Below, piece after piece: positions 41,065 through 57,478 of a DNA stretch of 64,000 bases. Position 1 is the stretch's first letter; each line of letters opens with the position of its first letter. The notes under the pieces are model-generated. The model ran no database searches and was not told the origin of the DNA. It saw nothing but the letters and a program-made list of their open reading frames with translations. The translations under genes and the position numbers were made by a program. This stretch comes from Nitrospiraceae bacterium. GTDB lineage: Bacteria; Nitrospirota; Thermodesulfovibrionia; Thermodesulfovibrionales; Dissulfurispiraceae. Where the stretch lies: the NCBI GenBank assembly GCA_012517735.1, contig JAAYUK010000063.1, forward strand, positions 2,671-66,670. Reading direction: 5' to 3'.

Positions 41065-41098
41065 ACGGTTACGCATGCCGCCTGAGCGGTAACCTGTC

Positions 41099-42742: not shown

Positions 42743-43348
42743 TCAGTAGTCAATGTCATCCTGGCGGAGCCAGCGGACGGCGAGGCGCCAGATTACCAGT
42801 GCAATCGTGATGATCAGCAGCAGGACGAGCAGGGCCGTCTGGGCCGACTCGATGTCGGTCTTGATCCGCTCAATCACATTGCCGCCCCAGTACCCCGCGC
42901 TCACCATGATCGCAATGGTAACGAGCGACGAGAGGGCATCCGCCACAACGAACTTCGGCCGGGGCATCTTCAGAATGCCTGCCACCAGAAATATCTGCGC
43001 TCTCAGGCCGACAAGATGACGACCCAGAAAGATCACGATGATCCCCCATTTTTCGAACAGCCGGGAAAGTTTCTTGATCCGGCGGGGCGAAATGATTCTG
43101 CGGAAACGCTTGTGTGCTACGACCATTCTGCCGTATTTTCTGCCGATATGGTACAGGAAAAAATCGGTACAGACCATGCCGAGCGACAGAATGAGTATGG
43201 CCGGAACCGGTTGCACCACGTTGTGAGCGATCATGAAGCCGCACAGAATCAGGATCGCATCTTCCGGAAACGGCATGCCGAGCGTGCCGAGCACGAGCAT
43301 GACAAAAAGCCCCAGATAGGGGAAGTTCTGAATGAATGAGGTATCCAT
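42743..43348 (-). CDS. DedA/VTT-domain membrane protein
   Basis: ..YLGLFVMLVLGTLGMPFPEDAILILCG..FFLYHIGRKYG..FLGRHLVGLRAQIFLVAG... Start is uncertain (ATG at 43348 preferred; ATG 43423 or TTG 43441 possible). Confidence 0.8.
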   Translation of the reverse strand: MDTSFIQNFPYLGLFVMLVLGTLGMPFPEDAILILCGFMIAHNVVQPVPAILILSLGMVCTDFFLYHIGRKYGRMVVAHKRFRRIISPRRIKKLSRLFEKWGIIVIFLGRHLVGLRAQIFLVAGILKMPRPKFVVADALSSLVTIAIMVSAGYWGGNVIERIKTDIESAQTALLVLLLIITIALVIWRLAVRWLRQDDIDY

Positions 43349-43457
43349 TGTTTGTGTGTTTTTCAGTGCACGATCAACGGGAAGAGGGAACAACATCGTG
43401 CTGGTGCCTCTAGTGTTGCCCATAGAGGCACCAAGAGTCAATCAGAGGGATGCAATT

Positions 43458-44123
43458 TCAGGCTGTCTTCTGATCCGGAAAGGAGAGCGCCCCTTTGGGA
43501 CAGGCTGCCACACAGGTTCCGCATTTGATGCAGTCATTGTCCTGAAGTGTTCCTGCGGCCTTGTCCTTATAGGGTGCGAGCTGCATCGGGCATGCCTTTG
43601 CACAGAGCGTGCAGTCGATGCAGGTGTCGGCGACCGCAAGCGGTTTTTTCCCGGATGATATCCAGTTTGCAATGGTTCCCATCGGACAGACATGGCACCA
43701 TGTGCGCGGATGGATCCCTATGCCGAGGACAATGCCGATCGATGTCGTCACCGTCAAAACAACAACGAATGCCTTGCCGATGCCGTCGATATCCGGCCAC
43801 GCATATGCTATTTGTATCCCCAGAACGGCAAAGAGCAGCAGGATCATGCCTATGCGGGTGCCGGTCGAACGGAACACTGCGGGAACAGCCCTTTTCCTGC
43901 TGATGCGGTCGAGAAACAGATCGTAGAAGCTGCCGCGCGGACAGAGCCAGTCGCACCACTGGCGGCCGCGGAATGCTGCGATCCCCAATGCGCCGACCAT
44001 GCAGCCCAGAAGCAGAAAGCCGAGTTTCGGCCAGAACCAGCCGCCGATGACGACCAGCGGCAGCCCGTACCAGGTATATGATTGAAGACGCCTTCTGTGT
44101 TTTCTGAATTCCTTGAGATTCAT
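43458..44123 (-). CDS. Membrane-bound 4Fe-4S polyferredoxin (NapH/MauN-like)
   Basis: TM helices with CxxxCP motifs (WCDWLCPRG, WCHVCPMG). C-terminal 2x[4Fe-4S] (CIDCTLCAKACP..CIKCGTCVAACP). Confidence 0.8.
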   Translation of the reverse strand: MNLKEFRKHRRRLQSYTWYGLPLVVIGGWFWPKLGFLLLGCMVGALGIAAFRGRQWCDWLCPRGSFYDLFLDRISRKRAVPAVFRSTGTRIGMILLLFAVLGIQIAYAWPDIDGIGKAFVVVLTVTTSIGIVLGIGIHPRTWCHVCPMGTIANWISSGKKPLAVADTCIDCTLCAKACPMQLAPYKDKAAGTLQDNDCIKCGTCVAACPKGALSFPDQKTA

Positions 44124-44536
44124 TTCCTTCCTGCTTTCTTCTGTCGCATATATGACAGATAGGTTTCCATATCACATTTGCCCGTTTTTTTCTGGAATTC
44201 GGTGCAGTCCCTGAGCGATCGCAGATCTTCCTTTGCCTGTGCGCTTGCAGACAGTTCACTTCTCAGCACATCCATCAGCGTCTGCTGCGGAAGCGGCAGG
44301 TTTTTTTTGAGAGAATAAAAGATCATCTTCCCTTCGCGCCTGTCATCAAGGTAACCGCCTTTCATCAGAAGGGAGAGGTTCCTTGATACCAGCGGCTGAG
44401 ACATGCCCAATACTCCCATGATCTGGCAAACGCAAAGTTCTTTGCGGTCCAGCAGCAAAAGTATGCGTATGCGTGATGCATCCGCCAGAAGCTTGAAGTG
44501 ATCAATCGCCGTTCTCATAAACATATTTAAATCCAT
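44120..44536 (-). CDS. ArsR/SmtB family metalloregulator (CVC motif) with Cys-containing C-terminal extension
   Basis: ..LLADASRIRILLLLDRKELCVCQIMGVLGMSQPLVSRNLSLL... ATGA overlap with the polyferredoxin gene. Confidence 0.85.
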   Translation of the reverse strand: MDLNMFMRTAIDHFKLLADASRIRILLLLDRKELCVCQIMGVLGMSQPLVSRNLSLLMKGGYLDDRREGKMIFYSLKKNLPLPQQTLMDVLRSELSASAQAKEDLRSLRDCTEFQKKTGKCDMETYLSYMRQKKAGRK

Positions 44537-44608
44537 TTATATGAAAAAAGTCAACCGTTATCTCTCGCCTCCCGGTGGTACAATAGAAAAAAAATGGAGG
44601 GAGGTCCC

Positions 44609-45424
44609 ATGCTTCGTTGCTTTTTGGCAGTGATGGTGTCGTTTGCTATTCTTTTGGTCGCTCCGGATTCTTCCCGGGAGAGTCATGCCATAGGATTCAT
44701 CAAATCCGTAACTCCCCTGAACATTTCTCCGAAGGGTCCGGGCGTTCCCCCTGGAGCGGGTACGCCGTCTGGGATCGATTCGCTGACTCCCCTGTTGACC
44801 TGGAGCGGCTCCGATTATTTCACCCAGAAAAGGGACTCCTGCGTGTTTGCGTTCTACCGCGTGATCGTCCGCGATGACCAGGGTCGCGCCGTGATTGACG
44901 AAGTGGTCGATACCGATGCGACATCGTACAAGGTCCCGCCCGGCATCCTTCAGTACGGACGTATCTACAGCTGGAGTTTCGAGCTGGTTACTGCCAGTCT
45001 TGGACTGAACCAGCAGACAAAACAGATCGAAAAAAATGAATATAGACGGAAAGGGTCTCCGGAATCACTCTTTTTCAAAACACCTTCCGATCCGCGTCAG
45101 GCCGGGCAACCTGCCGCACAGCGGCTCTCTGCGCAACTGGTTTCGTCGAGCGTTGTGGTGAATCCGCAGCAGGCCCTGCTGAAGCCGGCAGAGAAGGTTC
45201 TGCTCAGAATAGCAGGCGGGAATCCGCCTTATCTTATTGAAAACGGGGTTGCCGGACTGGGTGTCAAAAAAATTTCGGATACGGAGTTCGAGCTGACCAT
45301 GCCAACCGGCAGAAAAACGCATGTTCTTGCCACACAGGTGCAGGGTTCGATGAAAGACATCAAGAAGATTGTGATCATGGATTCGCGAAGGCAGCAGTTT
45401 GTTTTTTATTACGGAGCTGAGTAG
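44609..45424 (+). CDS. Secreted hypothetical protein with FN3-like module
   Basis: Signal peptide MLRCFLAVMVSFAILLVAP and GGAGGGAGG RBS. ..PLLTWSGSD..YRVIVRDDQG..TSYKVPPGILQYGRIYSWSFE resembles FN3. No family was recognised. Confidence 0.55.
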   Translation: MLRCFLAVMVSFAILLVAPDSSRESHAIGFIKSVTPLNISPKGPGVPPGAGTPSGIDSLTPLLTWSGSDYFTQKRDSCVFAFYRVIVRDDQGRAVIDEVVDTDATSYKVPPGILQYGRIYSWSFELVTASLGLNQQTKQIEKNEYRRKGSPESLFFKTPSDPRQAGQPAAQRLSAQLVSSSVVVNPQQALLKPAEKVLLRIAGGNPPYLIENGVAGLGVKKISDTEFELTMPTGRKTHVLATQVQGSMKDIKKIVIMDSRRQQFVFYYGAE

Positions 45425-45427
45425 GGG

Positions 45428-45469
45428 TTGATCATTTCGGGATGCGTTCATTATAATGTGCATATGCAC
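45428..45469 (+). promoter_or_regulatory. Sigma70 promoter plus 12-bp palindromic operator for the NifX-like/DUF134/YedE operon
   Basis: TTGATC (45428-33), 18-nt spacer, TATAAT (45452-57), immediately followed by the perfect palindrome GTGCATATGCAC (45458-69). Confidence 0.7.
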
Positions 45470-45489
45470 AAAATGAGCGGAGGTTTTTC

Positions 45490-45870
45490 ATGAAAATCTG
45501 TTTCCCGGTTGAACAGTCAGAAGGCATGCAGAGCAAGGTGTACGGTCACTTCGGGTCAGCCCCGGTGTTTGTTGTGGTCGATACGGAAGTACAGTCGGTA
45601 ACCGAAATCGTCAATCGTGATCTCCACCATCAGCATGGCGCCTGCAGCCCGATCAAGGCGCTCGGCGGGGCTGCTGTCGACGCGATTGTTGTCGGCGGCA
45701 TCGGAGCCGGTGCATTGATGAAGTTGCAGGAGGCGGGCATGCAGGTATATCGGGCCGGTGCATACACGATTGCCGAGAATATGAATTTGATGCAAAGGGG
45801 CATGCTCCAGATTCTGCAGCCGCATCAGGTCTGCGGCGGCCATGCTCACGGCGGCGGCTGCTCCCACTGA
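45490..45870 (+). CDS. NifX/NifB-like (dinitrogenase FeMo-cofactor-binding fold, COG1433; orange-protein-like) protein with Cys/His tail
   Basis: MKICFPVEQSEGMQSKVYGHFGSAPVFVVVD..AIVVGGIGAGAL..AGMQVY.., tail CGGHAHGGGCSH. Paralog of 58192-58566. Confidence 0.85.
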   Translation: MKICFPVEQSEGMQSKVYGHFGSAPVFVVVDTEVQSVTEIVNRDLHHQHGACSPIKALGGAAVDAIVVGGIGAGALMKLQEAGMQVYRAGAYTIAENMNLMQRGMLQILQPHQVCGGHAHGGGCSH

Positions 45871-45953
45871 GGGTTTCGACAGCATGCAATTCTGTCTCCC
45901 CGTAGAGACGGATAACGGATTGCGTAGTCAGGTTCTTGGGCATAATTAAGATC

Positions 45954-46241
45954 ATGGGACGAACGAAGAAACCCAGAACCTGCGGCTGCCCGTTTGACGA
46001 GCTGAAATGCTGCATATTCAAACCGCGGGGCATCCCGATGCATTCGCTGCAGCGTACGGTCATCAGTCTGGATGAAATCGAGGCCCTTCGTCTGTGTGAC
46101 GGAGAAAGTCTGACGCAGGAGGAAGCCGGTACCCGCATGGGGATTTCCCGGGGGACGGTTCAGCGGTTGCTGGAGAGCGGCAGAAGAAAAACCATTTCAG
46201 CGCTCGTTGATGCAACGGCAATTATAATCGAAAAACCATAG
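45954..46241 (+). CDS. DUF134 (UPF0251) predicted DNA-binding protein
   Basis: ..FKPRGIPM..ISLDEIEALRLCDGESLTQEEAGTRMGISRGTVQRLL.. is a sigma-70 region-4-like HTH. Cys-rich N-terminus (CGC..CC). Confidence 0.8.
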   Translation: MGRTKKPRTCGCPFDELKCCIFKPRGIPMHSLQRTVISLDEIEALRLCDGESLTQEEAGTRMGISRGTVQRLLESGRRKTISALVDATAIIIEKP

Positions 46242-46287
46242 GCTTATGTAGCGGTAAAAACCCTTTTGCGGCAGAAGGGGGGTAACG

Positions 46288-47163
46288 ATGCCATCGAATT
46301 TTTTTCTGCGGAGTTTCATTTCTCTGCTCACCACGCTCAGCTTCCTGCTTGCTTCAATAACCGGGATCGTGCTCTTTATCGTTCCCCAGGGACGTGTGGC
46401 TTACTGGACCGACTGGAAACTGCTTGCGCTCTCAAAAACCGATTGGGGCAATGTCCATATCTCCGCCTGTGTGATATTCATGATTGCGGGAAGTATCCAT
46501 TTGTATTTCAACTGGCCGGTTTTTCTCAGCCACCTGAAAGATCGTGTGAAACGAACCTACACGCTCCGGAAGGAACTTGCCGCGGCAGTTCTTCTTTCGA
46601 TACTTGTCGTAGCGGGGTCCATCGCTCCGTTTCCGCCTATGAGCTGGCTTCTGTCGCTCAATACGCAGATCAAGGAGTACTGGGTGAACAAGGGATACGG
46701 TGAGCCTCCGTTCGGGCATGCCGAGCAGGTTTCGCTTGCTGCGCTCGCGCGACGGGAGAACATCGATCTGCAACAGGCCATGGACGGCATGCGCAGGCGC
46801 GGTATTGTGGTTGCCGGCGAGCAGGAGACGCTCGAGAGCATCGCAAAAAAGAACAAAACCTCACCGGCTGCGCTTTTCGCACTCATGAAGCTCAGCCCCG
46901 CGAAATCTCCGGTCAACATTCCTGCTTCGGAAAACCGGCCTCGGCTTTCGGCAGTTGATCTCGAAGCGAAGTTTTCGGGAAGCGGCATCGGACGCAAAAC
47001 CGTTCCCGAGGTCGTTGCAGAAATCGGACTCCCACGCGAAGTTGCTGAGCGGCGTCTTGCAGCGAGGAATATCCATGTGCGCGAGGGTGAGACCTTGAAA
47101 GAGACTGCCGCCCGTCTCGGAATAAAACCGATTGATATTGTGAAGGGTCTTGCAGATGACTAG
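46288..47163 (+). CDS. DUF4405-like membrane protein with soluble C-terminal domain
   Basis: Four predicted TM helices (..LTTLSFLLASITGIVLFIVP..HISACVIFMIAGSIHLYFNW..). The family call is from memory. Confidence 0.6.
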   Translation: MPSNFFLRSFISLLTTLSFLLASITGIVLFIVPQGRVAYWTDWKLLALSKTDWGNVHISACVIFMIAGSIHLYFNWPVFLSHLKDRVKRTYTLRKELAAAVLLSILVVAGSIAPFPPMSWLLSLNTQIKEYWVNKGYGEPPFGHAEQVSLAALARRENIDLQQAMDGMRRRGIVVAGEQETLESIAKKNKTSPAALFALMKLSPAKSPVNIPASENRPRLSAVDLEAKFSGSGIGRKTVPEVVAEIGLPREVAERRLAARNIHVREGETLKETAARLGIKPIDIVKGLADD

Positions 47164-47207
47164 TCGCAGAACGGTGCGGTAAGCTTGGAGCAGAAAGGAG
47201 TATGCAC

Positions 47208-47555
47208 ATGCAGAAGTATGCGCTCTTTGTTTTCAATGGTGAGATGATGTGTTTTGTCCATGTCCTTCTGAACGCGATTCAGATGCATGAACGGGGGCTT
47301 GAAGCGCGCATTGTCATGGAAGGAGCATCGACCAGGCTTCTTCCGGAACTGGTGAAGCCTGACAATCCCCTTGCCGGGCTCTTTGCAAAGGCAAAAGAGC
47401 AGGGGCTTGTCGATGGCGTCTGCCGGGCGTGCTCGCAGAAGATGGGCACGCTGGCCGAAGCCGAAGCACAGGGGTTGCCGCTTCTTGATGATATGCAGGG
47501 ACATCCCGGCATGGCGGGCTACACTGCCCGGGGGTACACACTAATCACATTTTGA
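47208..47555 (+). CDS. DsrE/DsrF-like family protein (putative sulfur/selenium carrier)
   Basis: ..YALFVFNGEMMCFVHVLLNA..IVMEGASTRLLPEL..GVCRACSQKMG..GHPGMAGY... ATG at 47208 is 9 nt after AGGAG (alternative 47202). Confidence 0.55.
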   Translation: MQKYALFVFNGEMMCFVHVLLNAIQMHERGLEARIVMEGASTRLLPELVKPDNPLAGLFAKAKEQGLVDGVCRACSQKMGTLAEAEAQGLPLLDDMQGHPGMAGYTARGYTLITF

Positions 47556-47574
47556 GCCTGCAGAAGGAGGCGAT

Positions 47575-48099
47575 ATGACACGAAGAGACGAGAAAAGCTG
47601 GAGTCCCTATGTCGCAGGTGCCTTGACCGGCATTGTGCTGATCCTGTCGGTCTGGGTTGCGGACAAGTATGTCGGTGCCTCGACGACTTTTGTCCGCACT
47701 GCGGGCATGATCGAGCAGCAGTTTGCGCCGGACAAGGTGAAGACGATGGAGTATTTTATCAAGGAAAAACCGATAGTCGACTGGCAGACACTGTTTGTAG
47801 CCGGCATCTTTATCGGTTCACTCTTTGCAGCCGTCATGTTTAACGACTTCAAGAAACAGGCGGTCCCTCCCATGTGGGAAAAGCGCTTTGGCCCGAGTAT
47901 CCCCAAACGTGCGGTGTTTGCATTTCTCGGCGGCGCGGTTGCGATGTTTGGAGCGCGCCTTGCCGACGGCTGACCGAGCGGTCATGGGCTGAGCGGGTCG
48001 CTCCAGCTTGCGGTCAGCGGTTTCATAGCGCTGATCTGTTTCTTTGTCGGCGGCATGGTTTCCGCCCGTATCATGTACGGAGGAGGTAACCAGAAATGA
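47575..48099 (+). CDS. YeeE/YedE-family half-transporter with in-frame TGA (probable selenocysteine) at 47971-47973
   Basis: ..FLGGAVAMFGARLADG-[TGA]-PSGHGLSGS.. matches the family GGCxSGHG motif. Read-through ends at a TGA (48097-99) that overlaps the next gene's ATG. GAAGGAGG RBS. Confidence 0.7.
47988..48007 (+). promoter_or_regulatory. Candidate bacterial SECIS hairpin
   Basis: GCUGAGCG-GGU-CGCUC(C)AGC begins 14 nt after the UGA. G/U-containing apical loop with one bulged C. Confidence 0.5.
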
Positions 48100-48623
48100 G
48101 TCCTCTCCTGTATGGTTTGATCACCGGCATCGCATTTGGTTTTCTTTTGCAGAGAGGAGGAGTGCTTCGGTATGATCGCCAGATCGGCGCGCTCCGACTG
48201 ATGGATATGACCATTCTGAAATTCATGCTCAGCGCGATTCTTGTCGCCATGGTCGGCGTATATCTGCTCAAGGACATGGGGATCGTCAAGCTGAATCTCA
48301 AACCGACCATTATAGGCGCCCAGATACTCGGCGGACTGATTTTCGGCCTCGGATGGGGCGTGCTCGGCTATTGCCCCGGCACGCAGATGGGTGCTCTGGG
48401 GGAAGGACGCTGGGATGCCGTGTGGGGCATCATGGGCATGCTGCTTGGAGCAGCACTGTATGCGGAAGCATATCCGATCATGAAAACGACTGTTCTGACC
48501 TGGGGCGTTTACGGCAAAATCACCCTGCCGCAGGTTCTCGGGGTCAATCATTGGCTGGTTATTGTTCCGTTGGTATTCGGTGGTATCGGGTTGTTCTTAT
48601 GGTTTGAAAAAAAGGGACTGTAG
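48096..48623 (+). CDS. YeeE/YedE-family half-transporter (Cys form)
   Basis: ..GIAFGFLLQRGG..GGLIFGLGWGVLGYCPGT..; GGAGGAGG RBS. 175 aa. Confidence 0.8.
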   Translation: MSPLLYGLITGIAFGFLLQRGGVLRYDRQIGALRLMDMTILKFMLSAILVAMVGVYLLKDMGIVKLNLKPTIIGAQILGGLIFGLGWGVLGYCPGTQMGALGEGRWDAVWGIMGMLLGAALYAEAYPIMKTTVLTWGVYGKITLPQVLGVNHWLVIVPLVFGGIGLFLWFEKKGL

Positions 48624-48632
48624 TACATTGAG

Positions 48633-48667
48633 CAGCGTGGGGCGACTATTCTCCCCACGCTGTTTTT
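48633..48667 (+). terminator. Intrinsic terminator ending the YedE operon
   Basis: CAGCGTGGGG-10 nt-CCCCACGCTG followed by TTTTT. Confidence 0.85.
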
Positions 48668-48862: not shown

Positions 48863-50074
48863 TCAGCAACGGGAAACCAGCTGGACCGGCACCCTGCTTC
48901 CTTTTTCGAGTTTTTCGCACCCTTCGGCAATCATGACTATCGCGTCGGCCCGCGCCATGAATTGCAGACGGCTCGACAGCTTGAGCGGCCGGAATTCGAG
49001 TCCATCTCTTGTTTGTCGAAGCGATCCATAAATAAACTGTGTCCAGTCCTTTTGCCCCTGAACTGCTTCGGTGATGATCGCATGGGCAACGGGGAGTCCG
49101 CATATGGTGTGGCCGCCCAGCTTCAACAATCCCGGAAGTGCAAGCTGCAGAAACGCCATCTGATTCGACGGTGGTCCTCCGGGCAGGCAGAATACCGGTT
49201 TCGATGCGAGATGGCCGAAGCCAATCGCCTTTCCGGGCCCCATGCGTACCCGATGAAATGTCTTTTCCCATCCCATGTCATCCAGAATCTGCACCACACG
49301 ATCACGCTCCCCTTTCCATGCCCCTCCGCTGGTGATCAGGCAATCGGCAGTCCGCAGGACATCGCTGATTGCACGCCTGATGGCTGTCGCTGAATCATTG
49401 ACCACACGTTGTTTTGAGCTCATGCCATAGATGGAGCACCACGAGGCGATGGTGACCAGATTGCTTGCAAAGACCATCCCGTCCCGGATTTTCCGGCCAA
49501 CGGCAACCACCTCGTCGCCGGTCGCGACAATGCCGACACGCGGGGATCGGTACACTGGGATTTTCTCATGTCCGGCCGCGGCCAGAAGTCCGATCTGCGA
49601 CGGCGAAAGACGGGAGCCCTTTTCAACGAGCAGGTCGCCGATTGCAGCGTCAGTCCCTTTTTCCAGGATATTTCTCCCCCTGGCCGACGGAGCGGAAACA
49701 GAAACGGTCCCATTGTCGCAGGCAGTAAATTCCTCTGCGACCACTGCATCAGCTCCATCCGGTATCGCGGCCCCCGACATTATTCGTACGGTCGTTCCCG
49801 GCACGACTCTGATTATCTCTGATGAACCGGCCATGCGACTGCCGGTCAGCCTGAGTTGTACCGGACACGCTGGTGACGCACCGGCGATGTCGGAGGAGAT
49901 GACCGCATATCCGTCTTTCAGCGAGATATCAACGGAGGGAGTATCGATCAACGAAGCTACCGGTGATGCAGCCACCCTGCCGGTGAGTTTACCGATAGGC
50001 ACATCCTCGGCCGGCAGCGGCAGAATGCTGCCAACCGTCATTGCAAGCGCTTCATTGAATGATATTTCGGGCAT
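48863..50074 (-). CDS. moeA: Molybdopterin molybdenumtransferase
   Basis: ..DISLKDGYAV..RIMSGAAIPDGADAVV..GDEV......I.D.N......ITSGG...G..D... Confidence 0.88.
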   Translation of the reverse strand: MPEISFNEALAMTVGSILPLPAEDVPIGKLTGRVAASPVASLIDTPSVDISLKDGYAVISSDIAGASPACPVQLRLTGSRMAGSSEIIRVVPGTTVRIMSGAAIPDGADAVVAEEFTACDNGTVSVSAPSARGRNILEKGTDAAIGDLLVEKGSRLSPSQIGLLAAAGHEKIPVYRSPRVGIVATGDEVVAVGRKIRDGMVFASNLVTIASWCSIYGMSSKQRVVNDSATAIRRAISDVLRTADCLITSGGAWKGERDRVVQILDDMGWEKTFHRVRMGPGKAIGFGHLASKPVFCLPGGPPSNQMAFLQLALPGLLKLGGHTICGLPVAHAIITEAVQGQKDWTQFIYGSLRQTRDGLEFRPLKLSSRLQFMARADAIVMIAEGCEKLEKGSRVPVQLVSRC

Positions 50075-50113
50075 ATAATCCTTTCCGGGAAGCTTCTTTG
50101 CCTGAAGCAGTGC

Positions 50114-50509
50114 CTATGGACGCTCTGTCAACTGAATGATCGCTTCTTTTTTTATCTCATCCACCAGAAACGAACATGCCGCAAAACAGCGATCGCGTGT
50201 CGCTCCGGACACCATCACCAATAGAACGGAATCACGCGGTCCGACACGCCCGATTCTGTGGACGACCAGAATCTGATTGAGCACAAACCGCTGAGCCGTT
50301 TCAGCTGCGAGCCCGGCGAGACGCTGGTTAACATCCGTGCTGCGTGGTATCAGTTCCACACCAGAAAAATCCGCAATCTGCTTTCCGGGCCGCTTCACCA
50401 TGCCGTGGTGACTGACCACCGTTCCGCTCCGGTCATCGTCCTGATCAATGAACGTCCTGTACAAAGCCAGATAATCTATCGGTTCCTCTGTTGCATAGGC
50501 TGTTATCAT
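50114..50509 (-). CDS. moaE: Molybdopterin synthase catalytic subunit MoaE-like
   Basis: ..GTVVSHHGMVKRPGK..ILVVHRIGRVGPRDSVLLVMVSGATRDRCFAACSFLVDEIKK... ATG at 50509 with GGAGG RBS. Confidence 0.75.
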   Translation of the reverse strand: MITAYATEEPIDYLALYRTFIDQDDDRSGTVVSHHGMVKRPGKQIADFSGVELIPRSTDVNQRLAGLAAETAQRFVLNQILVVHRIGRVGPRDSVLLVMVSGATRDRCFAACSFLVDEIKKEAIIQLTERP

Positions 50510-50642
50510 GGAGCCTCCGAATCCGTTTGTTGGTTGCTGTCCATTACGACTCAAAAGGGCGTCCAGTCGCTCCCCTGCTTGTGTATCACTGCCTGCTCAT
50601 GACACAATAACCATAATTTTTTTGCAGCGGTAAAGGAGACCT

Positions 50643-51101
50643 ATGCCACGTCCCAAATGCCAGAGACAGATCGCCGGACTCCCTGCCTCTACCTACTTCA
50701 AGCCGCGGGGAATCCCGATGTCGGATCTCGAGGAAGTAATCCTGACGATCGATGAAGTGGAAGCGATACGCCTTGCCGATCACGAAGGGCTCTATCAGGA
50801 ACAGGCGGCCGAGTTCATGAAGATTTCCCGCCAGACGTTCGGGCGGGTAATCGCCTCTGCGCACCGGAAGATCGCCGATGCCCTGGTTACCGGTAAGGCA
50901 TTGCGGATTGAAGGCGGTGTTGTCAGTTTCGCGCAGGCGACAAAATACCGGTGCGCTTCCTGTGATGAAAAATGGTCGCCTCCGAGCGGCACGGGTGCGC
51001 CCGCAATCTGTCCGTCCTGCGGCAGCAGTGCTCTTGGCGCTCATGCAGACATCCATCACCGTCACAGAAAAGGCCGGGCCGGTAAGAACTCCCGGGGTTA
51101 A
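50643..51101 (+). CDS. DUF134 DNA-binding protein fused to a C-terminal CxxC..CxxC zinc ribbon
   Basis: MPRPKCQRQI..YFKPRGIPM..IDEVEAIRLADHEGLYQEQAAEFMKISRQTFGRV.., then ..YRCASCDEKW..ICPSCGS. Confidence 0.8.
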   Translation: MPRPKCQRQIAGLPASTYFKPRGIPMSDLEEVILTIDEVEAIRLADHEGLYQEQAAEFMKISRQTFGRVIASAHRKIADALVTGKALRIEGGVVSFAQATKYRCASCDEKWSPPSGTGAPAICPSCGSSALGAHADIHHRHRKGRAGKNSRG

Positions 51102-51340
51102 CCGCAGTGCGGTTCGGCGCAGGGCGTAGCACTGCCGCAACAGGTTGTCGCGCTCCCGCAGCGCGGCCGGGAAAGCCCCGCATCAGCAGACCCTTTCATG
51201 ATGAATCCGCTTCCTCCGGTAATAATCCGACGGCTCGGGGCAGCGCATTTCGGACACGGGCGGTCTTCCGTTTCCTGCATTGAGTGGATTACCTCAAACA
51301 GTTCTCCGCACGCATTGCAGCGGTAATCATATTTCGGCAT
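51098..51340 (-). CDS. FmdB-family zinc-ribbon protein
   Basis: MPKYDYRCNACGELFEVIHSM..RPCPKCAA.. with a Cys-rich tail. AGGAG RBS. Confidence 0.8.
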   Translation of the reverse strand: MPKYDYRCNACGELFEVIHSMQETEDRPCPKCAAPSRRIITGGSGFIMKGSADAGLSRPRCGSATTCCGSATPCAEPHCG

Positions 51341-51387
51341 GGCAACTCCTTTCTGGTGCGCCGCTCCGGATTTCACCGGACGGCGGA

Positions 51388-52230
51388 TTATTTCAGCACA
51401 ATCCGAAGTCCTGCATAGCCGATGCGGACTGCGTGTGGAAATGCGTCTGTCAGTGCGGCGATTGCCCGTTCCCCGCTGCAGTGGCAGGGGACGATCAATT
51501 CAGGCGCAAAGGACTGCAGCGCCGAGACCGTGTATGCGATGCGCTCGTCCGATGCGTTCATGAGATGCAAGCCTCCGATAACGGCACGTATTCTCTCATC
51601 TGGTCCCGTAAGGCTGATCACATGATGGAGCGTGTTTACAATTCCCGCGTGGGCACAGCCGACACAGACGACAATTCCTTCCGGCGTTCGTATCCAGAGC
51701 GCCATGTCGTCTTCGAGCAGGTCGCTCCTGACGGGGGCAGGGTCAAGATAAAAGGGGCCGCCGGTATCCTCAATACCATTGTTCCGGGGAATATGACCGG
51801 TGATGCCGACGGTTCTGCTCAGCTGAAACGGTTCGGCCGATGGACAGAAGCGGCCGGTCGGCAGGCTTTCCGCCGCAGCCCGTGCATCTCCCTGCATGCC
51901 GATGCTTCTGACGGTACCGTCACGGATACTATAGCGTTCGCGAAGCGCTTCCGGATGACAGAACAGATGCGGATACCTGGCGAGAGAAAGAACATGGGCG
52001 ACTCCGCCTGTGTGGTCATAATGGCCATGGCTCAGGATCACCGCATTCGTCAGCGACAGATGAATTCCCATCTTTTCGGCATTCGGGATCAACGCACCAC
52101 CCTGCCCGGTGTCGAACAGCAGCCGCATGCCGTCCGCCTCGATCCAGAGGGCGAGGCCATGTTCGCGCACGAAACCGTCGGCAGTCCGGTTATCTGCGAG
52201 AATGCTGATGATCACGCGCTCTTTGTCCAT
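51388..52230 (-). CDS. MBL-fold metallo-hydrolase
   Basis: ..LLFDTGQG.. and HGHYDHTGG (HxHxDH motif). Confidence 0.85.
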   Translation of the reverse strand: MDKERVIISILADNRTADGFVREHGLALWIEADGMRLLFDTGQGGALIPNAEKMGIHLSLTNAVILSHGHYDHTGGVAHVLSLARYPHLFCHPEALRERYSIRDGTVRSIGMQGDARAAAESLPTGRFCPSAEPFQLSRTVGITGHIPRNNGIEDTGGPFYLDPAPVRSDLLEDDMALWIRTPEGIVVCVGCAHAGIVNTLHHVISLTGPDERIRAVIGGLHLMNASDERIAYTVSALQSFAPELIVPCHCSGERAIAALTDAFPHAVRIGYAGLRIVLK

Positions 52231-52361
52231 GGACGACCTTCTCCTGTCCGATGCCTGTGTTTCAACAGATCATCATCGAAAGGAATCCCCCGATGATGAC
52301 TACGTACAGTATATCCGTTTTCCCGACCAATGCGGCAAGTACAGCAGAGCGGGCTACAAAC

Positions 52362-54059
52362 CTATTTTTCCCTCGGATACGGCCATGCCGCAATGCCGCC
52401 TTCCATTACCCTGACATTCTTCCACCCGTTCGCTTCAAGCACCAGTGCCGCTTCATAGCCGCGCAGGGAGATCTTGCAGAACGCGATGATTTCACGATCC
52501 TTGTCAGAAGGAAGTTCCGCCAGTCGTTTCCGGAGTGCTCCGAGCGGGATGAGTGTTTCGCCGGCGCCGATACGCATCTCTTCATATTCGTCAGGACCGC
52601 GGGCATCGAGCAGAAACGGTTTTTCGCCGCGGTCGAGTTTGGTCTTTACCTCTTCAGGGGTCAGCCCCTTCAGCCGCCCAAGCAGTTTGTTTTGCATGAG
52701 GTGGGCCGTCGCAATGCCGTGGTCGATTGCGAGCGAAAACGGTGGCGCATACGGAAGGTCGGCGTTTGCCATGTCGTCGACCGTCAGATTGCCGAGGATC
52801 GCCATTGCCCATTGCGCTATCTGCCGGTTCACATTGCCGGGCCCGGCACACTGGGCGCCGAGGATTCGTCCGGTTTTCCGGTCGGCAACCAGTTTGGTGA
52901 CAAGGAGCTTCCCCTTCATGAAACCGGGCAGGTCCGGGCTTGCGTTGATCACCGATACCGCATCGAATCCGTGCTCTCTGGCCGAGCGCTCCGAGAGGCC
53001 GGTTGCGCCGGCGGAAAAATCAAAGACTTTGCAGATGCCGGTCTGGATGGTTCCCGGAAAGGTCACCCGGTTGCCGAGCACGGCGTTTTCACCCGCAACG
53101 CGTCCTTCGAGATTGGCGAGATCGCCATAGGGGGCAAGCACTTTCTTCCCGGTGATCCGGTGCGTCAGCTCCACACAGTCGCCGACAGCGTAAATGTCGG
53201 GATCGGACGTCTGCATATACTGATCGACGACGATTCCTCCCGTATCTCCGATAGCGAGTCCTGCTTTTTTCGCCAGAACGGCATTGGGCGCAACGCCGAT
53301 GGCGACCACCGCAAGCTCGCAGGGCAGTTCAGTGCCGTTCTGCAGTTTGACGCCGGTCAGCACCCCATCGTTTCCCAGAAAAGCCGCGATACCGTTGCCG
53401 GTGATCACATTGACGCCTTTGCTCCTGACATGGTTTTCGACCAGTTTTGCGATGTCGAAGTCGAGAAAGGTCAACAGCTGGGGCAGCATCTCGATGACGG
53501 TGAGTTCCAGTCCGGCAAGTTGAAGGGCTTCACAGGTTTCGATGCCGATCAATCCCTCGCCGATAATGACCGCCTTTTTGATCGTGCCGCCATCCCGCAC
53601 GGCGCGCAAATAGTCCGCATCCTGCATGGACTGGAGGGTCGTGATGCCTTTCAGGTCGGCTCCTGGGACCGGCGGCCTCCGGGGGACCGATCCGGTCGCA
53701 AGAATCAGTTTGTCGTAGGTCAGTGAGCCGGTTTCCCCCGTGAGCAGATTGGTGAAGGAAACCCGTTTCTCTGCGCGTTCGATGCTGGTCACCTCCGTCG
53801 AGACGCGCGCATCGATCCCTTTTGCGTTCAGATAGAATTTGGGATCGCGCACTACCCCGGCAGGAGTGGCAAGCAGCTGGTTGCGGTCGTCGAAGAATCC
53901 GCCGACGTAATACGGATAGCCGCATGAGGCCATGGAGAGCTCCGGGCCCTTCTGGAGTAAAACAATCTCTGCGTGTTCATTGCAGCGTCGTGCCTTTGCC
54001 GCTGCCTTCGGTCCGGCCGCCGAGCCGCCGATAACGACAATACGCGTGGTTTGAGTCAT
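52362..54059 (-). CDS. CoA-disulfide reductase/NADH-oxidase-family flavoprotein with C-terminal rhodanese domain
   Basis: VVIGGSAAGPKAA (FAD), redox Cys in ..SMASCGYPYY.., second Rossmann motif IIGEGLIGIE, and rhodanese loop ..IAFCKISLRG. Confidence 0.85.
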   Translation of the reverse strand: MTQTTRIVVIGGSAAGPKAAAKARRCNEHAEIVLLQKGPELSMASCGYPYYVGGFFDDRNQLLATPAGVVRDPKFYLNAKGIDARVSTEVTSIERAEKRVSFTNLLTGETGSLTYDKLILATGSVPRRPPVPGADLKGITTLQSMQDADYLRAVRDGGTIKKAVIIGEGLIGIETCEALQLAGLELTVIEMLPQLLTFLDFDIAKLVENHVRSKGVNVITGNGIAAFLGNDGVLTGVKLQNGTELPCELAVVAIGVAPNAVLAKKAGLAIGDTGGIVVDQYMQTSDPDIYAVGDCVELTHRITGKKVLAPYGDLANLEGRVAGENAVLGNRVTFPGTIQTGICKVFDFSAGATGLSERSAREHGFDAVSVINASPDLPGFMKGKLLVTKLVADRKTGRILGAQCAGPGNVNRQIAQWAMAILGNLTVDDMANADLPYAPPFSLAIDHGIATAHLMQNKLLGRLKGLTPEEVKTKLDRGEKPFLLDARGPDEYEEMRIGAGETLIPLGALRKRLAELPSDKDREIIAFCKISLRGYEAALVLEANGWKNVRVMEGGIAAWPYPREK

Positions 54060-54422: not shown

Positions 54423-55262
54423 CTAAGCGATATTCCGGACAAGGGTATCGACCAACGCCGAGAAAGCCCTGCCCGAAGGGCTCTCCGCGGCATGCTGTAT
54501 CACCGGTTCCCCACTGTCGCCGGATGCGGCAACTGCGGCATCAAGCGGAATGCTTCCCAGAAACGGGATCTGCATCTCCGCTGCGAGGGCTTCGCCACCG
54601 CCTTTTTTGAAGATATTCACGACCGTCCCGCAGTGCGGACAGGCAAAACCGCTCATGTTTTCGACCAGTCCGATGATCGGAATGCCGACTTCCCGGCAGA
54701 AGGTGATCGATTTGCGCACATCCTCCAGCGCGACATCCTGGGGGGTTGTGACGATTATCGCCCCGTCGGGGTTCTTGAGCAGTTGAACGATTGAAATCGG
54801 TTCGTCGCCGGTGCCCGGGGGGCAATCGACAACGAGCCAGTCACGGGGTCCCCATGCAACATCGCCGAGGAACTGCTTGATGACCCCATGTTTCAGCGGA
54901 GCACGCCAGATGAGCGCATTGTTGCGGTCCTGCAGGAGAAATCCGACCGACATGACCGACAGCAGTCCGTCATACCCGACCGGAAGCAGGGATTCTCCAT
55001 CCTGCTCCGGCAGCATCCCTTCGAGTCCGAGAATTTTTGGGATACTCGGCCCATGAATATCGATATCGACCAGACCGGTCCTCAGGCCGCGCAGGGCGAG
55101 TCCGACGGCAATATTTGCGGCCACCGAGCTTTTGCCGACGCCTCCCTTGCCGGAAAGAACGAGTATTTTGTGGCGGATTTGCTCCATGCGGTGCTGCACC
55201 GCATTCTGCTCCTGTTCAATCCATTGTGTGTCATTGCTGCCGCACGCATGTGGTGTGCTCAT
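54423..55262 (-). CDS. mrp: Mrp/NBP35 (ApbC-type) Fe-S cluster carrier ATPase
   Basis: ..ILVLSGKGGVGKSSVAANIA..VDIDIHGPS..DCPPGTGDE..CPHCG... Start is uncertain (55262, 55295 or 55187). Confidence 0.85.
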   Translation of the reverse strand: MSTPHACGSNDTQWIEQEQNAVQHRMEQIRHKILVLSGKGGVGKSSVAANIAVGLALRGLRTGLVDIDIHGPSIPKILGLEGMLPEQDGESLLPVGYDGLLSVMSVGFLLQDRNNALIWRAPLKHGVIKQFLGDVAWGPRDWLVVDCPPGTGDEPISIVQLLKNPDGAIIVTTPQDVALEDVRKSITFCREVGIPIIGLVENMSGFACPHCGTVVNIFKKGGGEALAAEMQIPFLGSIPLDAAVAASGDSGEPVIQHAAESPSGRAFSALVDTLVRNIA

Positions 55263-56169
55263 GTCCGGTGTTCCTTTCTTGCTGTATGGTGTCAAAAAGT
55301 CTCAGAATATTCTTGGTAATTGTCCGCAATGCCTCCGCGGCCCGGCTTTCGGGATAGCAACGGGCCAGAGGAATCCCCTGCGCGATGGCGAGCGGGACGT
55401 GAATGTCATACGGGATTTCTCCGAGTACGGTGATTCCGCGTTCCGCCATGCGGGAACGGATGGTTTCAGCCCCCTCAGGATTGATATCCGCCTTGTTGAT
55501 GATTACGCCGGTCACCGGGTCAAAATATGCCGTCACTTCAAGCAGGCGCTCCAGATCGCTCAGCGCCGGCGCGGTCGGTTCCGTTATGGCCAGCACAGCG
55601 TCGCAGCCTTTCAGCGATGAGATAACCGGACAGCCGATGCCGGGCGGGCCGTCGATGATGAGATAGTCAGCCCGGTCATCCTGTGCGACGTTTCGTGCTT
55701 CATTTTTGACCAGATCCACAATCTTGCCGGAACTGCTCTGACCAACCGTCAACTCGCCCGAAACGAGATTGCGCACACCGTTCCGGAACAGATGCAGATA
55801 GCCGTTCTGCATGCGTTTTATGCTGACGGCGTGTTCCGGGCATTCGGCCACACACGCTCCGCAGGCTTCACAAAAGAGCGGCAGCATGACCGGTATCTTC
55901 TCATCCGGCAGCAGTGCGCCGAAACTGCACACCGCAGTGCAATCCATGCAGCCGATGCAACGGGTCTCGTCAATCACGGCTTTTTCGGATGCAAAAACCG
56001 GAGCGCTTTTTATCGGCTCAGCTCCGGTGATGATATGCAGATTCGGTGCGTCCACATCGGTATCGGCCAGTGTGATGATGAGGCCGGCAGGCAGGAGTTC
56101 CGCCAATGAGGCAGTGATGCTCGATTTGCCGACACCGCCTTTTCCGCTCAGGATGACCACTTCTTTCAT
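55231..56169 (-). CDS. MinD-superfamily P-loop ATPase with inserted 2x[4Fe-4S] ferredoxin domain (COG1149-like)
   Basis: MKEVVILSGKGGVGKSS.., CIGCMDCTAVC.., CEACGACVAECP. The ATG overlaps (ATGA) the upstream gene's stop. Confidence 0.85.
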   Translation of the reverse strand: MKEVVILSGKGGVGKSSITASLAELLPAGLIITLADTDVDAPNLHIITGAEPIKSAPVFASEKAVIDETRCIGCMDCTAVCSFGALLPDEKIPVMLPLFCEACGACVAECPEHAVSIKRMQNGYLHLFRNGVRNLVSGELTVGQSSSGKIVDLVKNEARNVAQDDRADYLIIDGPPGIGCPVISSLKGCDAVLAITEPTAPALSDLERLLEVTAYFDPVTGVIINKADINPEGAETIRSRMAERGITVLGEIPYDIHVPLAIAQGIPLARCYPESRAAEALRTITKNILRLFDTIQQERNTGHEHTTCVRQQ

Positions 56170-57101
56170 TTCAGCCACTCCCTTTCTATCCGCGCTGCCA
56201 AGTCGGTAAAGATGCGCGCTGCGGGCGAGTCAGGGTTCGTGCCGACAACGGGCAGTCCTTTCACATAGCTTTGCAGCAGGATACTGTCATGCGGAATTGA
56301 TGCAGCTACGGTAACATCCTTTGATGCAGCCTCCGGGGCAATCGTTGCCTGGCTGCCGCTCAGATTTGAGCGGTTCAGGATAATGCGGGCCGGTATTGCG
56401 AGCATTTCACAGAGATCGAGGATGAGACCGAGATCATGCATGCCGACACGGGTCGGTTCGGTGACCGCATACGCGCAGCCGGCGCCCGCGAGCGCCGCAA
56501 TAACGGTGCAATGTACCCCGGGGGCGGTATCGACGACTATGATGTCGAACCGGTCTGCTTCCGCCGCCAGGCGATCCTTGAGCGCCCGCACTATAATGGT
56601 GCTCTCCTCTCGTCCCGGGAGCAGCTCTCCGCTGAAAAGCGTAAGATTACCGGATTCTGTCCGGCAGGTAGCGCCGACGGACATCCAGCGGGTCAGCAGC
56701 GCTCCTGTCGGACAGGCGTTTATACAGGCTTTGCACCCATTGCATTCTCCCATCAATATCGGTGTCTGATCCGGCGGCAGAAAGAGCGCATTGCGGCGGC
56801 ATGCCGCAATGCAGTCCCCGCAGTGTGTGCAGAGCGATGGTTCCACGAGCGGCATGGCAACCTGGACATCGATATGGTCTTTGAGGGGAAGCGAGAGCAG
56901 AATGTGATTGTTCGGCGCTTCCGTATCCGCATCGACCAGTGCCACTGCATGTCCGCGGGCTGCCAGGGCAGCTGCAATATTGACGGCAACGGTTGATTTG
57001 CCGACACCACCTTTGCCACCCGTAACAGCAATAACCGGCGTTGCATACGGGTGATCGTGCAAGGCTTCCAGTTGCCGGGCGGTAAAGACCTCTGCAGTCA
57101 C
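56166..57101 (-). CDS. MinD-superfamily P-loop ATPase with inserted 2x[4Fe-4S] ferredoxin domain (second copy)
   Basis: ..VIAVTGGKGGVGKSTVA.., CTHCGDCIAAC.., CNGCKACINACP. GTG start overlaps the upstream stop (GTGA). Confidence 0.85.
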   Translation of the reverse strand: MTAEVFTARQLEALHDHPYATPVIAVTGGKGGVGKSTVAVNIAAALAARGHAVALVDADTEAPNNHILLSLPLKDHIDVQVAMPLVEPSLCTHCGDCIAACRRNALFLPPDQTPILMGECNGCKACINACPTGALLTRWMSVGATCRTESGNLTLFSGELLPGREESTIIVRALKDRLAAEADRFDIIVVDTAPGVHCTVIAALAGAGCAYAVTEPTRVGMHDLGLILDLCEMLAIPARIILNRSNLSGSQATIAPEAASKDVTVAASIPHDSILLQSYVKGLPVVGTNPDSPAARIFTDLAARIEREWLK

Positions 57102-57478
57102 GAGCGGCCTCGCCCGGCCGACCCTTTACGTGCCTGTGCCCCGGTGCTCCGCCGGAGCAGGCCGTCCGAATAGTTTTTCACGGCGGTTTTTACCTCCATG
57201 CCGGCGCTGAGCCCGTCGTAAATGGCAATGCCCGCCGCCTGCAGGGCTGCATATGCCTTGGGTCCGACGAACCCGGTAAGCACTGCGTTGACCCCTTTTT
57301 GTGCTACGCTCTGAGCGGCGGCTATGCCAGCGCCCTGCCCGGCGTCCATTGCCGGATTCGCAATCGTTTCGTGCTGCATGGTATCGGGATCCACGAGCAC
57401 GAAGAACGGCGCCCGGCCGAAGCGTTCATCAACGCGAGCATCCAGGCCGTGACCTGAAGCGGTTATGCAGATTTTCAT
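57098..57478 (-). CDS. NifX/NifB-like (COG1433, orange-protein-like) protein
   Basis: MKICITASGHGLDARVDERFGRAPFFVLVD..VLTGFVGPKAY..AGIAIY.., with a basic tail and no Cys/His tail. Confidence 0.85.
   Translation of the reverse strand: MKICITASGHGLDARVDERFGRAPFFVLVDPDTMQHETIANPAMDAGQGAGIAAAQSVAQKGVNAVLTGFVGPKAYAALQAAGIAIYDGLSAGMEVKTAVKNYSDGLLRRSTGAQARKGSAGRGRS

Follow-up and report, generated by a model that had tools for sequence, protein, structure and literature searches.

Structural work on YeeE of Spirochaeta thermophila (StYeeE) placed Cys293 in contact with thiosulfate in a periplasmic indentation and found Cys91 and Cys293 to be essential and Cys22 dispensable (PMC7449682). Channels of this type also occur split into two half-size genes. 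Li et al. described the order PmpA, carrying the Cys293-type residue, then PmpB, carrying the Cys91-type residue (PMC11582611), and YedE1E2 of Cupriavidus pinatubonensis, which has one essential Cys per half and often adjoins ArsR-family genes, imports zero-valent sulfur (PMC10812762). A form with selenocysteine (Sec, U), YeeE/YedE GUxSG, is a listed selenoprotein family (PMC13188914). Here we analysed a six-gene operon whose last two genes encode such a split YedE pair, with Sec in the first half and Cys in the second. It lies in a window of 64,000 nucleotides (nt), the whole stretch of DNA under study, from a Nitrospiraceae metagenome-assembled genome (MAG; contig JAAYUK010000063.1, operon proteins NLI29020-29025), and the same locus is present on more than 100 public contigs. 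Since GUxSG is already listed, the Sec form belongs to a known predicted family, and the split pair has likewise been described before (PMC11582611, PMC10812762, PMC13188914). The points of interest are the position of Sec at the outer substrate-capture site, a natural Sec/Cys polymorphism, and a recurrent tie of sulfur-trafficking genes to gene clusters resembling that of the orange protein (ORP) complex.

The operon is real. All six open reading frames (ORFs) of the plus strand, at 45490-48623, lie where the first-pass annotation had placed them. The short gaps and overlap that it had reported also hold, with intergenic distances of 83, 46, 44 and 19 nt in gene order and an overlap of 4 nt (ATGA) between the two YedE genes. 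Ribosome-binding sites of the GGAGG type precede five of the six genes, the DUF134 gene being the exception. The component families are all known, as are the Sec form and the split architecture, and the exact six-gene operon is a lineage-specific variant. Its features are listed below, with protein lengths in amino acids (aa) and the evidence in brackets.

45428..45457, plus strand: sigma-70-type promoter-like site TTGATC-18-TATAAT (10/12 match; layout kept in the orthologous locus L007)
45458..45469, plus strand: perfect 12-bp palindrome GTGCATATGCAC right after the -10 element, a candidate operator (sole exact copy in the window)
45490..45870, plus strand: NifX-fold protein, 126 aa (PF02579 Nitro_FeMo-Co, 68 bits)
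45954..46241, plus strand: DUF134/UPF0251 helix-turn-helix (HTH) protein, 95 aa, with an N-terminal KKPRTCxCPF motif (PF02001)
46288..47163, plus strand: DUF4405 membrane protein, 291 aa (PF14358, 64.5 bits against a cut-off of 26.7)
47208..47555, plus strand: DsrE/DsrF-fold protein, 115 aa, in a 115/117-aa ORF (AlphaFold2 model and Foldseek)
47575..48099, plus strand: first YedE half, PmpA/YedE1-like, homologous to the C-terminal half of YeeE, 174 aa, selenocysteine 133 (PF04143)
47971..47973, plus strand: in-frame TGA read as selenocysteine, motif G-U-P-S-G (codon comparison, coding conservation)
47987..48008, plus strand: hairpin resembling a selenocysteine insertion sequence (SECIS), 9 bp, one bulge, GGU apical loop (starts 16 nt after the U of UGA, 16-37 nt 3')
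48096..48623, plus strand: second YedE half, PmpB/YedE2-like, homologous to the N-terminal half of YeeE, 175 aa, Cys93 in GYCPG (PF04143)
48633..48667, plus strand: intrinsic terminator with a 10-bp GC-rich stem, a 10-nt loop and UUUUU (hairpin at 48633-62)

Both YedE halves exceed the cut-off of the PF04143 Sulf_transp profile (27 bits), the first with 91.6 bits over profile positions 174-310 and the second with 53.7 bits over positions 18-148. When aligned with StYeeE, the first half covers residues 230-328 and sets U133 opposite Cys293, and the second covers residues 4-119 and sets Cys93 opposite Cys91, with Leu at the position of Cys22. The split Sec/Cys pair of the first-pass annotation is thus upheld, with the in-frame TGA in the first gene and the Cys of GYCPG in the second. 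Two named relatives were considered as identities and rejected. For TsuA, the two halves scored 52.4 and 47.8 bits against a cut-off of 400, and 34.6 and 26.7 bits against 645 (NCBIfam); the channel is split and no TusA accompanies it. For the selenium-linked YedE/FdhT (TIGR04112, NF033796), the scores were 33.1 bits against 200, and 35.6 and 25.9 bits against 350, and there is no YedF-like ORF. An ORF resembling TusA or YedF was found neither in the window nor near any split pair examined; TusA was found solely beside full-length YeeE, in L069 and L083 (comparison loci are denoted by L and a number).

The Sec codon of the first YedE half is, on comparative grounds, real. The reading frame is conserved for 41 codons past the TGA, up to position 48099 (ADG-U-PSGHGLSG...). 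Among 87 related loci the codon at this site is TGA in 58, TGC in 26 and TGT in three, and neither TAA nor TAG occurs. The hairpin downstream of the codon is conserved as a structure: over 31 distinct Sec sequences, pairing is kept in 97.8% of cells, with compensatory changes at three pairs, and the covariation score was reached by none of 500 shuffles. All seven core pairs are retained in 41 of 45 Sec forms versus 3 of 23 Cys forms. An Rfam scan of 44-50 kb at E<=1 returned no match and hence no independent SECIS call. The scan of the 64-kb window found no tRNA-Sec; the tRNAs at 19484-19676 are tRNA-Val(TAC) and tRNA-Asp(GTC). The full hairpin (7/7 pairs) persists in three Cys forms (L091, L094 and L099/L100), as expected of recent conversions from Sec to Cys, the older Cys forms having lost it.

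Furthermore, the codon at 47971-73 varies between TGA and TGC within the species, a new detail. TGC stands at this position in L091 (SRR12489247, position 7397) and L092 (SRR12489245, position 984), which are 99.94% and 99.71% identical to the window; the window itself reads TGA, as do at least four further assemblies. Within the cluster at 90%, about 129 contigs give truncated calls, which correspond to the Sec form, and about eight give the 174-aa Cys form. The contigs of L091 and L092 both stop at window coordinate 48373, inside the second YedE gene, which suggests an assembly break caused by strain variation or rearrangement in those samples.

The second line of evidence concerns the company that these genes keep. 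The window holds, around the operon, the following genes:

43458..44123, minus strand: NapH-like Fer4_5 membrane ferredoxin, co-transcribed with arsR
44120..44536, minus strand: arsR/SmtB-family regulator with an ELCVC motif, a candidate regulator (HTH_5; NCBIfam HTH_metalloreg, 73 bits against 55)
48863-50074: MoeA
50114-50554: MoaE
50643..51101, plus strand: second DUF134 gene, with a C-terminal Zn-ribbon (its orthologue ends the YedE operon in L007)
51388..52230, minus strand: metallo-beta-lactamase (MBL)-fold protein (Lactamase_B)
52362..54059, minus strand: flavoprotein resembling coenzyme A-disulfide reductase (CoADR), with a C-terminal rhodanese (Rhd) domain
54423..57478, minus strand: ORP-like cluster of Mrp/NBP35, two CbiA-Fer4 ATPases and a NifX-like protein

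Hence the whole set, from the ArsR-type regulator and its ferredoxin to the ORP-like cluster, lies within 14 kb of the window (43.4-57.5 kb), and the earlier observation that MoeA/MoaE, a CoADR-rhodanese and an ORP-like cluster are found within 10 kb of the operon was correct (48863-57478). The CoADR-rhodanese is a probable persulfide/polysulfide reductase.

The links among these families were surveyed with the other proteins of the window as queries and by look-ups of annotated neighbourhoods. CoADR-Rhd orthologues adjoin YedE pairs in L109, L110 and L173; L173, from Pelobacter propionicus, also has ArsR and, next to its CoADR-Rhd, a Fer4_5 gene, as in the window. In L015, L031 and L084 such orthologues adjoin the DsrE-like gene. 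The ORP-like core (two CbiA-Fer4 genes, NifX-like, Mrp) lies directly 5' of the DsrE-like gene in L060 and L015, near it in L040, L069, L083 and L084, and 1-5 kb from YedE pairs in L151, L157-160, L168 and L175. In Smithella (L015), one strand carries CbiA-Fer4, Mrp, NifX, MBL, 4HBT, Fer4, CoADR-Rhd and the DsrE-like gene. Orthologues of the MBL-fold protein stand beside ORP-like clusters, a YedE pair or a DsrE-like gene in L175, L160, L040, L015 and L084. Pairwise links among these families thus recur in about seven lineages, where chance would be expected to give about 0.4-2% per 16-kb window for a gene of one to few copies (about 0.4% for a one-copy cluster), a rough estimate and not a computed background. 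Because YedE pairs and DsrE-like genes recur beside ORP-like, CoADR-Rhd and MBL genes, a sulfur supply beside a metal-cluster system has comparative support. At the level of gene families, a metal-cluster-binding fold is indeed joined to a chalcogen channel and a DsrE-fold protein, as had been proposed. Where the ORP-like core stands within a few kb of the DsrE-like gene or a split YedE pair, a CoADR-rhodanese, an MBL-fold gene and a 4HBT thioesterase often accompany it. The literature searched contained no paper linking components of ORP/MrpORP with YeeE/YedE, and sulfur-trafficking partners were not mentioned in the ORP papers searched.

We then turn to the four accessory genes, whose family assignments were likewise sustained: the NifX-like, DUF134 and DUF4405 proteins by Pfam, and the DsrE-like protein by its model and Foldseek. 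The NifX-fold protein has a conserved Cys4, an HxHGxC52 motif and a C-terminal C-G-G-H-x-H-G-G-G-C-S-H tail. This Cys/His pattern is common to the orthologues in L007, L096 and L086 and absent from the NifX-like protein of the ORP-like cluster (57101-57478). The NCBI label of NLI29020.1 (45490-45870) is 'diguanylate cyclase', a probable misannotation; a GGDEF domain is not detectable in it. A member of the same PF02579 family, IssA, is induced by elemental sulfur (S0) and stores Fe and S (PMC5524996). Like the window protein it combines a globular domain with a C-terminal tail, which in IssA is functional and tied to growth on S0; however, the IssA tail is long, cationic and Gly-rich with one Cys, whereas that of the window protein is short (approximately 15 residues) and rich in Cys and His.

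The DUF134 protein matches PF02001 with 68 bits (cut-off 27) and contains an HTH resembling sigma-70 region 4; its CxC is conserved in L094 and L097. Its start is most likely ATG 45954 and not TTG 45936, because the Pfam match spans the Cys-rich N-terminus and NLI29021.1 is the 95-aa form. We take DVU2107 in orp1 to be a DUF134 protein as well.

For the DUF4405 protein the family assignment stood and the count of four transmembrane (TM) helices did not. The AlphaFold2 model (predicted local distance difference test, pLDDT, 84) shows three TM helices and one interfacial helix, together with two soluble domains that are helical; the C-terminal of these domains would face the periplasm by the positive-inside rule. 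In an alignment of 26 homologues, neither His57 and His71 of TM2 nor the motif EPPFGHAE varies. Foldseek of the model gave no significant match in the PDB, the best being sigma factors and cytochrome b6 at E>0.6. Described DUF4405 proteins have six TM helices and four His, and DUF4405 proteins and their FezC relatives bind heme b, a dimer having been proposed for FezC (PMC11334425). In contrast to these, the window protein has three TM helices and the two His of TM2, so its heme sites would need a dimer, as for FezC. It is probably a dimeric b-type cytochrome. The family of about 290 aa is widespread (Thiodiazotropha, Zixibacteria, Acidobacteria, Nitrospiraceae). Four homologues sit by NikR-CbiMNQO, ars genes, HMA/Cu-ATPase genes or nothing notable; among L087, L089 and L090, which carry the 290-aa EPPFGHAE form, the neighbours are NikR-CbiMNQO (Thiodiazotropha), ArsP/ArsR/ACR3 (Nitrospiraceae) and HMA/Cu-ATPase. 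These contexts hint at a role of the family in metal or metalloid redox handling.

The DsrE-like product is predicted to have a DsrE-type alpha/beta fold. Its AlphaFold2 model (pLDDT 95.8) has its best PDB matches in 2qs7, 2pd2 and 3pnx (TM-score about 0.65, probability 1.0, E about 3e-3). The sequence match to PF02635 DsrE is sub-threshold (13.6 bits versus 22.7, E=0.079), some homologues carry a precomputed PF02635 match, and a sequence-profile search of the PDB with the family gave a marginal match to 2fb6 only (E=0.07). In DsrE itself, the active-site Cys that carries the persulfide is Cys78. The alignment of the window family shows invariant Cys15, His18, Cys72-x-x-Cys75 and His99, and more than 650 relatives at about 60% identity are known, mostly from Desulfobacterota. 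A homologue with an in-frame stop between the Cys residues of the CxxC motif (L035:1595-1597) was considered as a Sec form and rejected, the stop being TAG; it marks a pseudogene or an assembly error.

The borders of the operon differ in how well they can be recognised. The first-pass annotation had called both the promoter and the terminator strong. The terminator is so: its free energy is -25.8 kcal/mol (z = -7.1), and none of 200 shuffles folds equally well. A consensus terminator scan missed it because its loop measures 10 nt. The promoter at 45428-57 matches the consensus at 10 of 12 positions, but a consensus scan counted no more promoter-like matches in the region than in shuffles, so the promoter owes its credibility to its conservation in L007. 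This orthologous operon, in a Nitrospiraceae MAG with about 76% identical DNA, has TTGCTC-18-TATAAT followed by GAGCATATGCAC at the equivalent place 5' of the genes. What the window and L007 have in common is TTGxTC-18-TATAAT plus the adjoining palindrome G(T/A)GCATATGCAC; the palindrome is absent from the upstream region of L096. A search for inverted repeats in front of arsR and of the second DUF134 gene yielded nothing of use. Transcripts may also read through into the operon from the upstream plus-strand gene at 44594-45424. The product of this gene (271-276 aa) has a signal-peptide-like N-terminus and no Pfam or NCBIfam match. The gene separates arsR from the promoter of the operon and is missing in L007 and L096; there, arsR and the NifX-like gene of the YedE operon form a directly divergent pair. 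The arsR, NapH-like Fer4_5 and DedA/VTT genes form an operon at 42743-44536 (minus strand), and the ArsR-Fer4_5 pair is kept in L007, L076 and L096. The first-pass annotation had placed the genes under one putative repressor, a role for which the divergent ArsR-type regulator is an equally good candidate. Further away in the window are a gene for an FmdB-type Zn-ribbon (51098-51340, minus strand) between MoaE and the CoADR-rhodanese, and an ftsQ-ftsA-ftsZ cluster with a B12-type radical SAM gene at 37457-42730, just upstream. The ORP complex of Desulfovibrio vulgaris has been putatively linked to cell division (PMC6345978), and the proximity of the fts cluster may be coincidental.

Conservation of the neighbourhood was examined from two anchors. 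In 80 genomes anchored on the DsrE-like gene, a split YedE pair was searched within 8 kb and found adjacent in L007, 2 kb off and in separate units in L040 and L049, and weakly in L044; DUF4405 was found in none of the 80. In 79 non-self metagenome loci anchored on YedE (median length 4.3 kb), neither the DsrE-like gene nor DUF4405 was present (0/79 each), and NifX-like and/or DUF134 stood directly 5' of the YedE pair in the close relatives L094-L097 only. The six-gene set was not found beyond this species in these 80 + 79 loci, the outcome that the first-pass annotation had itself named as speaking against its reading. Clustering of the YedE loci by neighbours revealed no widely shared partner. 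As a regular partner of YedE the DsrE-like gene was rejected (3-4/80 from its own side, 0/79 from the YedE side), and so was DUF4405, which occurs in unrelated metal and metalloid contexts. The order in L007 is ArsR-Fer4_5-VTT divergent from NifX, NifX, DsrE-like, YedE(Sec), YedE, DUF134-Zn-ribbon and then rhodanese. The core in the relatives is a Cys-tailed NifX-like gene (±DUF134, ±DsrE-like) with the YedE pair, under a divergent ArsR. Apart from this core, a cytochrome b561-type (PF01292) gene lies directly 5' of Sec-containing YedE pairs in L125:104-958 and L138:460-1257, a second and unrelated membrane b-cytochrome by this channel, parallel to the DUF4405 of the window. A gene with a MamS_MamX domain (PF26390) adjoins the YedE pair in L173 and L175, which are unrelated lineages; neither the window nor the other loci showed such a neighbour. 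In the cultured Pelobacter propionicus (L173; CP000482, 2117709-2128233), a sigma-54 activator is also nearby, in addition to ArsR, CoADR-rhodanese and Fer4_5.

We favour the reading that the locus encodes a Sec/Cys-relay importer of sulfane sulfur or thiosulfate, which feeds cytoplasmic carriers, persulfide reduction and possibly the assembly of clusters on the ORP-like machinery, and we give this reading an even chance of being right. The C-half (gene 5) and the N-half (gene 6) make up a two-subunit channel of the PmpAB/YedE1E2 type, in which the periplasm-facing relay residue, at the StYeeE Cys293 site of substrate capture, is selenocysteine and the central equivalent of Cys91 is Cys. The most likely substrate, sulfane (zero-valent) sulfur/polysulfide or else thiosulfate, would first be bound by the selenol and then handed inward through the Cys. 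Because TusA/YeeD is absent, its cytoplasmic acceptors would be the DsrE-fold CxxC protein and/or the Cys/His-tailed NifX-fold protein, or the rhodanese domain of CoADR-Rhd. From there, the CoADR-rhodanese flavoprotein would reduce the sulfur to sulfide, or the ORP-like machinery would use it in metal-sulfur cluster chemistry. Two precedents speak for this reading, the NSR of Thermotoga maritima (PMC9431562) and the S0-induced IssA (PMC5524996). DUF4405 is a lineage-specific addition, probably a b-type cytochrome that moves electrons to the periplasmic face. DUF134 and/or the divergent ArsR-type regulator would control expression, which would start at the conserved promoter with its palindrome. 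An extension of this proposal appears doubtful to us: ORP-like systems might possess a sulfur-supply arm of their own, leading from a Sec-gated split YedE, which would take in sulfane sulfur from the environment, via DsrE-fold, rhodanese/CoADR and Cys-tailed NifX-fold proteins to Mrp/CbiA-Fer4/NifX scaffolds without a cysteine desulfurase, with DUF4405 in this lineage providing electrons at the periplasmic face.

Several observations weigh against the importer. The six-gene composition is confined to one species and the DsrE-like gene is near YedE in 3-4 of 80 genomes; because of these numbers and the 0/79 for DUF4405, the accessory genes are not obligate partners of YedE. In most cases a Sec-YedE pair stands alone as a unit of two genes, and the neighbours vary greatly. 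The frequencies themselves are rough, as neighbours were detected with single-sequence phmmer and crude ORF calls on many short contigs. NCBIfam scores for both TsuA and selenium-linked YedE are all far below threshold and do not thereby fix the substrate. In addition, the ArsR protein has an As(III)-type ELCVC motif and reaches 36.8 bits against the cut-off of 155 with the BigR-type profile, and the import data for YedE1E2 come from aerobes, where import is coupled to persulfide dioxygenase (PMC10812762).

Another explanation is that the operon has no functional unity and is a lineage-specific concatenation of independent modules (NifX-like/DUF134, DUF4405, DsrE-like, YedE pair) that share a promoter, in neighbourhoods that reflect a general clustering of redox genes in anaerobes. 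The DsrE-like gene, DUF4405 and the YedE pair each usually occur alone or elsewhere, and in comparison with L007 and L096, DUF4405 and the secreted gene at 44594-45424 look recently inserted. However, the tight spacing, the translationally coupled YedE pair and the single conserved promoter and terminator argue for a unit, and the family links in about seven lineages are well above the estimated (not computed) chance level. We regard this explanation as rather unlikely.

The use of Sec in the channel itself raises the question of selenium uptake. On this view, selenite, selenide or Se(0) entering through the YedE pair would supply SelD and selenoprotein synthesis, and the DsrE-like and NifX-like proteins would act as Se carriers. 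YedE-family genes co-occur with selenium utilisation, and the yedE transcript of M. maripaludis rises on Se starvation (PMC5322559, PMC11097638); both YedE halves weakly match the selenium-linked models. Yet the selenium model scores below TsuA and far under its cut-off, selenium-linked YedE is full-length and paired with YedF, for which no TusA/YedF-like ORF exists here, and selD, selA or selB neighbours were not seen in the annotated loci. The deletion of yedE in M. maripaludis had no clear Se phenotype (PMC11097638). An Se importer that itself needs Se is awkward, an objection that is softened by the natural Cys variants. Altogether selenium uptake seems clearly unlikely.

Export, detoxification or sensing of reactive sulfur or metalloids would reverse the direction of the channel, or make it a sensor input like SoxT1B, with DUF4405 as a periplasmic reductase under an ArsR-type sensor of metalloids or persulfide. 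The ArsR with ELCVC adjoins the operon, PmpAB is under the ArsR-type PigS and BigR-type operons include YedE halves (PMC11582611, PMC10812762), and homologues of DUF4405 are found beside ars, Ni/Co and Cu genes; SoxT1B acts in signal transduction (PMC11582611). On the other hand, YedE1E2 sped up import and not export (PMC10812762), Sec stands at the outer capture site, and no arsenic resistance genes occur within the operon, which leaves this explanation improbable. The idea of the first-pass annotation, that S or Se is supplied to a Mo/W or Mo-Cu thiometallate-type cluster held by the orange-protein-like fold, with a link to MoeA/MoaE, is unsupported and highly improbable. In its favour, the orange protein and FeMo-co binders belong to PF02579, the genes directly 3' of the operon are those of MoeA and MoaE (MoeA is also 3' of the YedE pair in one close relative only, L094) and the ORP-like cluster is 6 kb away. 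Against it, MoeA adjacency is absent from L007 and all more distant loci, MoeA/MoaE are convergently transcribed housekeeping cofactor genes, and the operon NifX-like protein carries the Cys/His pattern that the ORP-cluster copy lacks.

If the importer reading is true, a selenol is placed at the outer substrate-capture site of a YeeE-type channel, and the natural Sec/Cys variants of one strain constitute an isogenic pair for what Sec adds to chalcogen transport. It would also provide a testable lead for unexplained ORP-like gene sets that stand beside genes for sulfur import, carriers and persulfide reductases, and candidate partners for split YedE pairs without TusA, namely the 115-aa CxxC DsrE-fold protein, the Cys-tailed NifX-fold protein and DUF134. 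Should it be wrong, what remains is an ordinary operon, specific to its lineage and made up of known families.

Among the described systems, the ORP complex of Desulfovibrio vulgaris (Orp3/4/5/8/9; PMC6345978) shares with the window PF02579, Mrp/NBP35 and CbiA-Fer4 proteins. The DUF134 gene that accompanies the NifX-like gene of the operon would be a further resemblance. As differences, the ORP genes of the window cluster apart from the operon, at a distance of 6-9 kb and on the other strand, and the operon NifX-like protein has the Cys/His tail; the ORP complex is characterised by a Mo-Cu-S cluster and sigma-54/OrpR control, whereas the operon has a sigma-70-like promoter. The operon itself was rejected as an ORP complex, since Mrp/NBP35 and CbiA-Fer4 are not inside it and lie at 54423-57478 (minus strand). 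The YTD cluster, defined as yedE, tusA, one dsrE-like gene plus a pair of conserved hypothetical (DsrF/H) genes, and the yeeE-tusA-dsrEFH type II arrangement (PMC13293266) also have a YedE-family gene adjoining a DsrE-fold gene in Desulfobacterota and Nitrospirota. In contrast, the window has no tusA, one 115-aa CxxC DsrE-like protein instead of the three-subunit DsrEFH, and a YedE that is split and contains Sec; membership was rejected for the lack of tusA and the single DsrE-fold gene. In Thermotoga maritima, S0 or thiosulfate induces the CoADR-type NSR together with yeeE/dsrE/tusA (PMC9431562). There, as here, an importer, DsrE-type carriers and a cytoplasmic reductase of the CoADR family come together in an anaerobe, in line with the CoADR-Rhd genes that adjoin YedE in L109, L110 and L173; the window reductase differs in lying 4 kb off on the other strand and in its rhodanese domain.

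The channel itself also has described relatives. With TsuA(YeeE)-TsuB(YeeD), the thiosulfate uptake system of E. coli and Spirochaeta thermophila, it shares the fold family, the Cys relay and the equivalents of Cys91 and Cys293. TsuA, however, consists of one 9-TM chain, has Cys22 as a third Cys and requires a TusA-like partner, whereas the window channel is split and has neither Cys22 nor TusA/YeeD. PmpA/PmpB of Serratia and YedE1/YedE2 resemble it in being adjacent half-size PF04143 genes with the homologue of the C-half before that of the N-half, in carrying one conserved Cys-type residue in each half, at the sites of StYeeE Cys293 and Cys91, and in an ArsR-family gene nearby. They differ from it in that here Sec occupies the Cys293-type site, the subunits measure 174 and 175 aa versus about 130 aa (four TM helices), the host is an anaerobe without persulfide dioxygenase, and the accessory genes are NifX-like, DUF134, DUF4405 and DsrE-like. 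Of the GUxSG family (PMC13188914), gene 5 is a member, with the identical G-U-P-S-G motif, PF04143, Cys homologues and a SECIS-like hairpin, and there is no difference at the family level. What our analysis adds to this family is that Sec maps to the periplasmic Cys293 site and that the codon is polymorphic, TGA or TGC, within one species.

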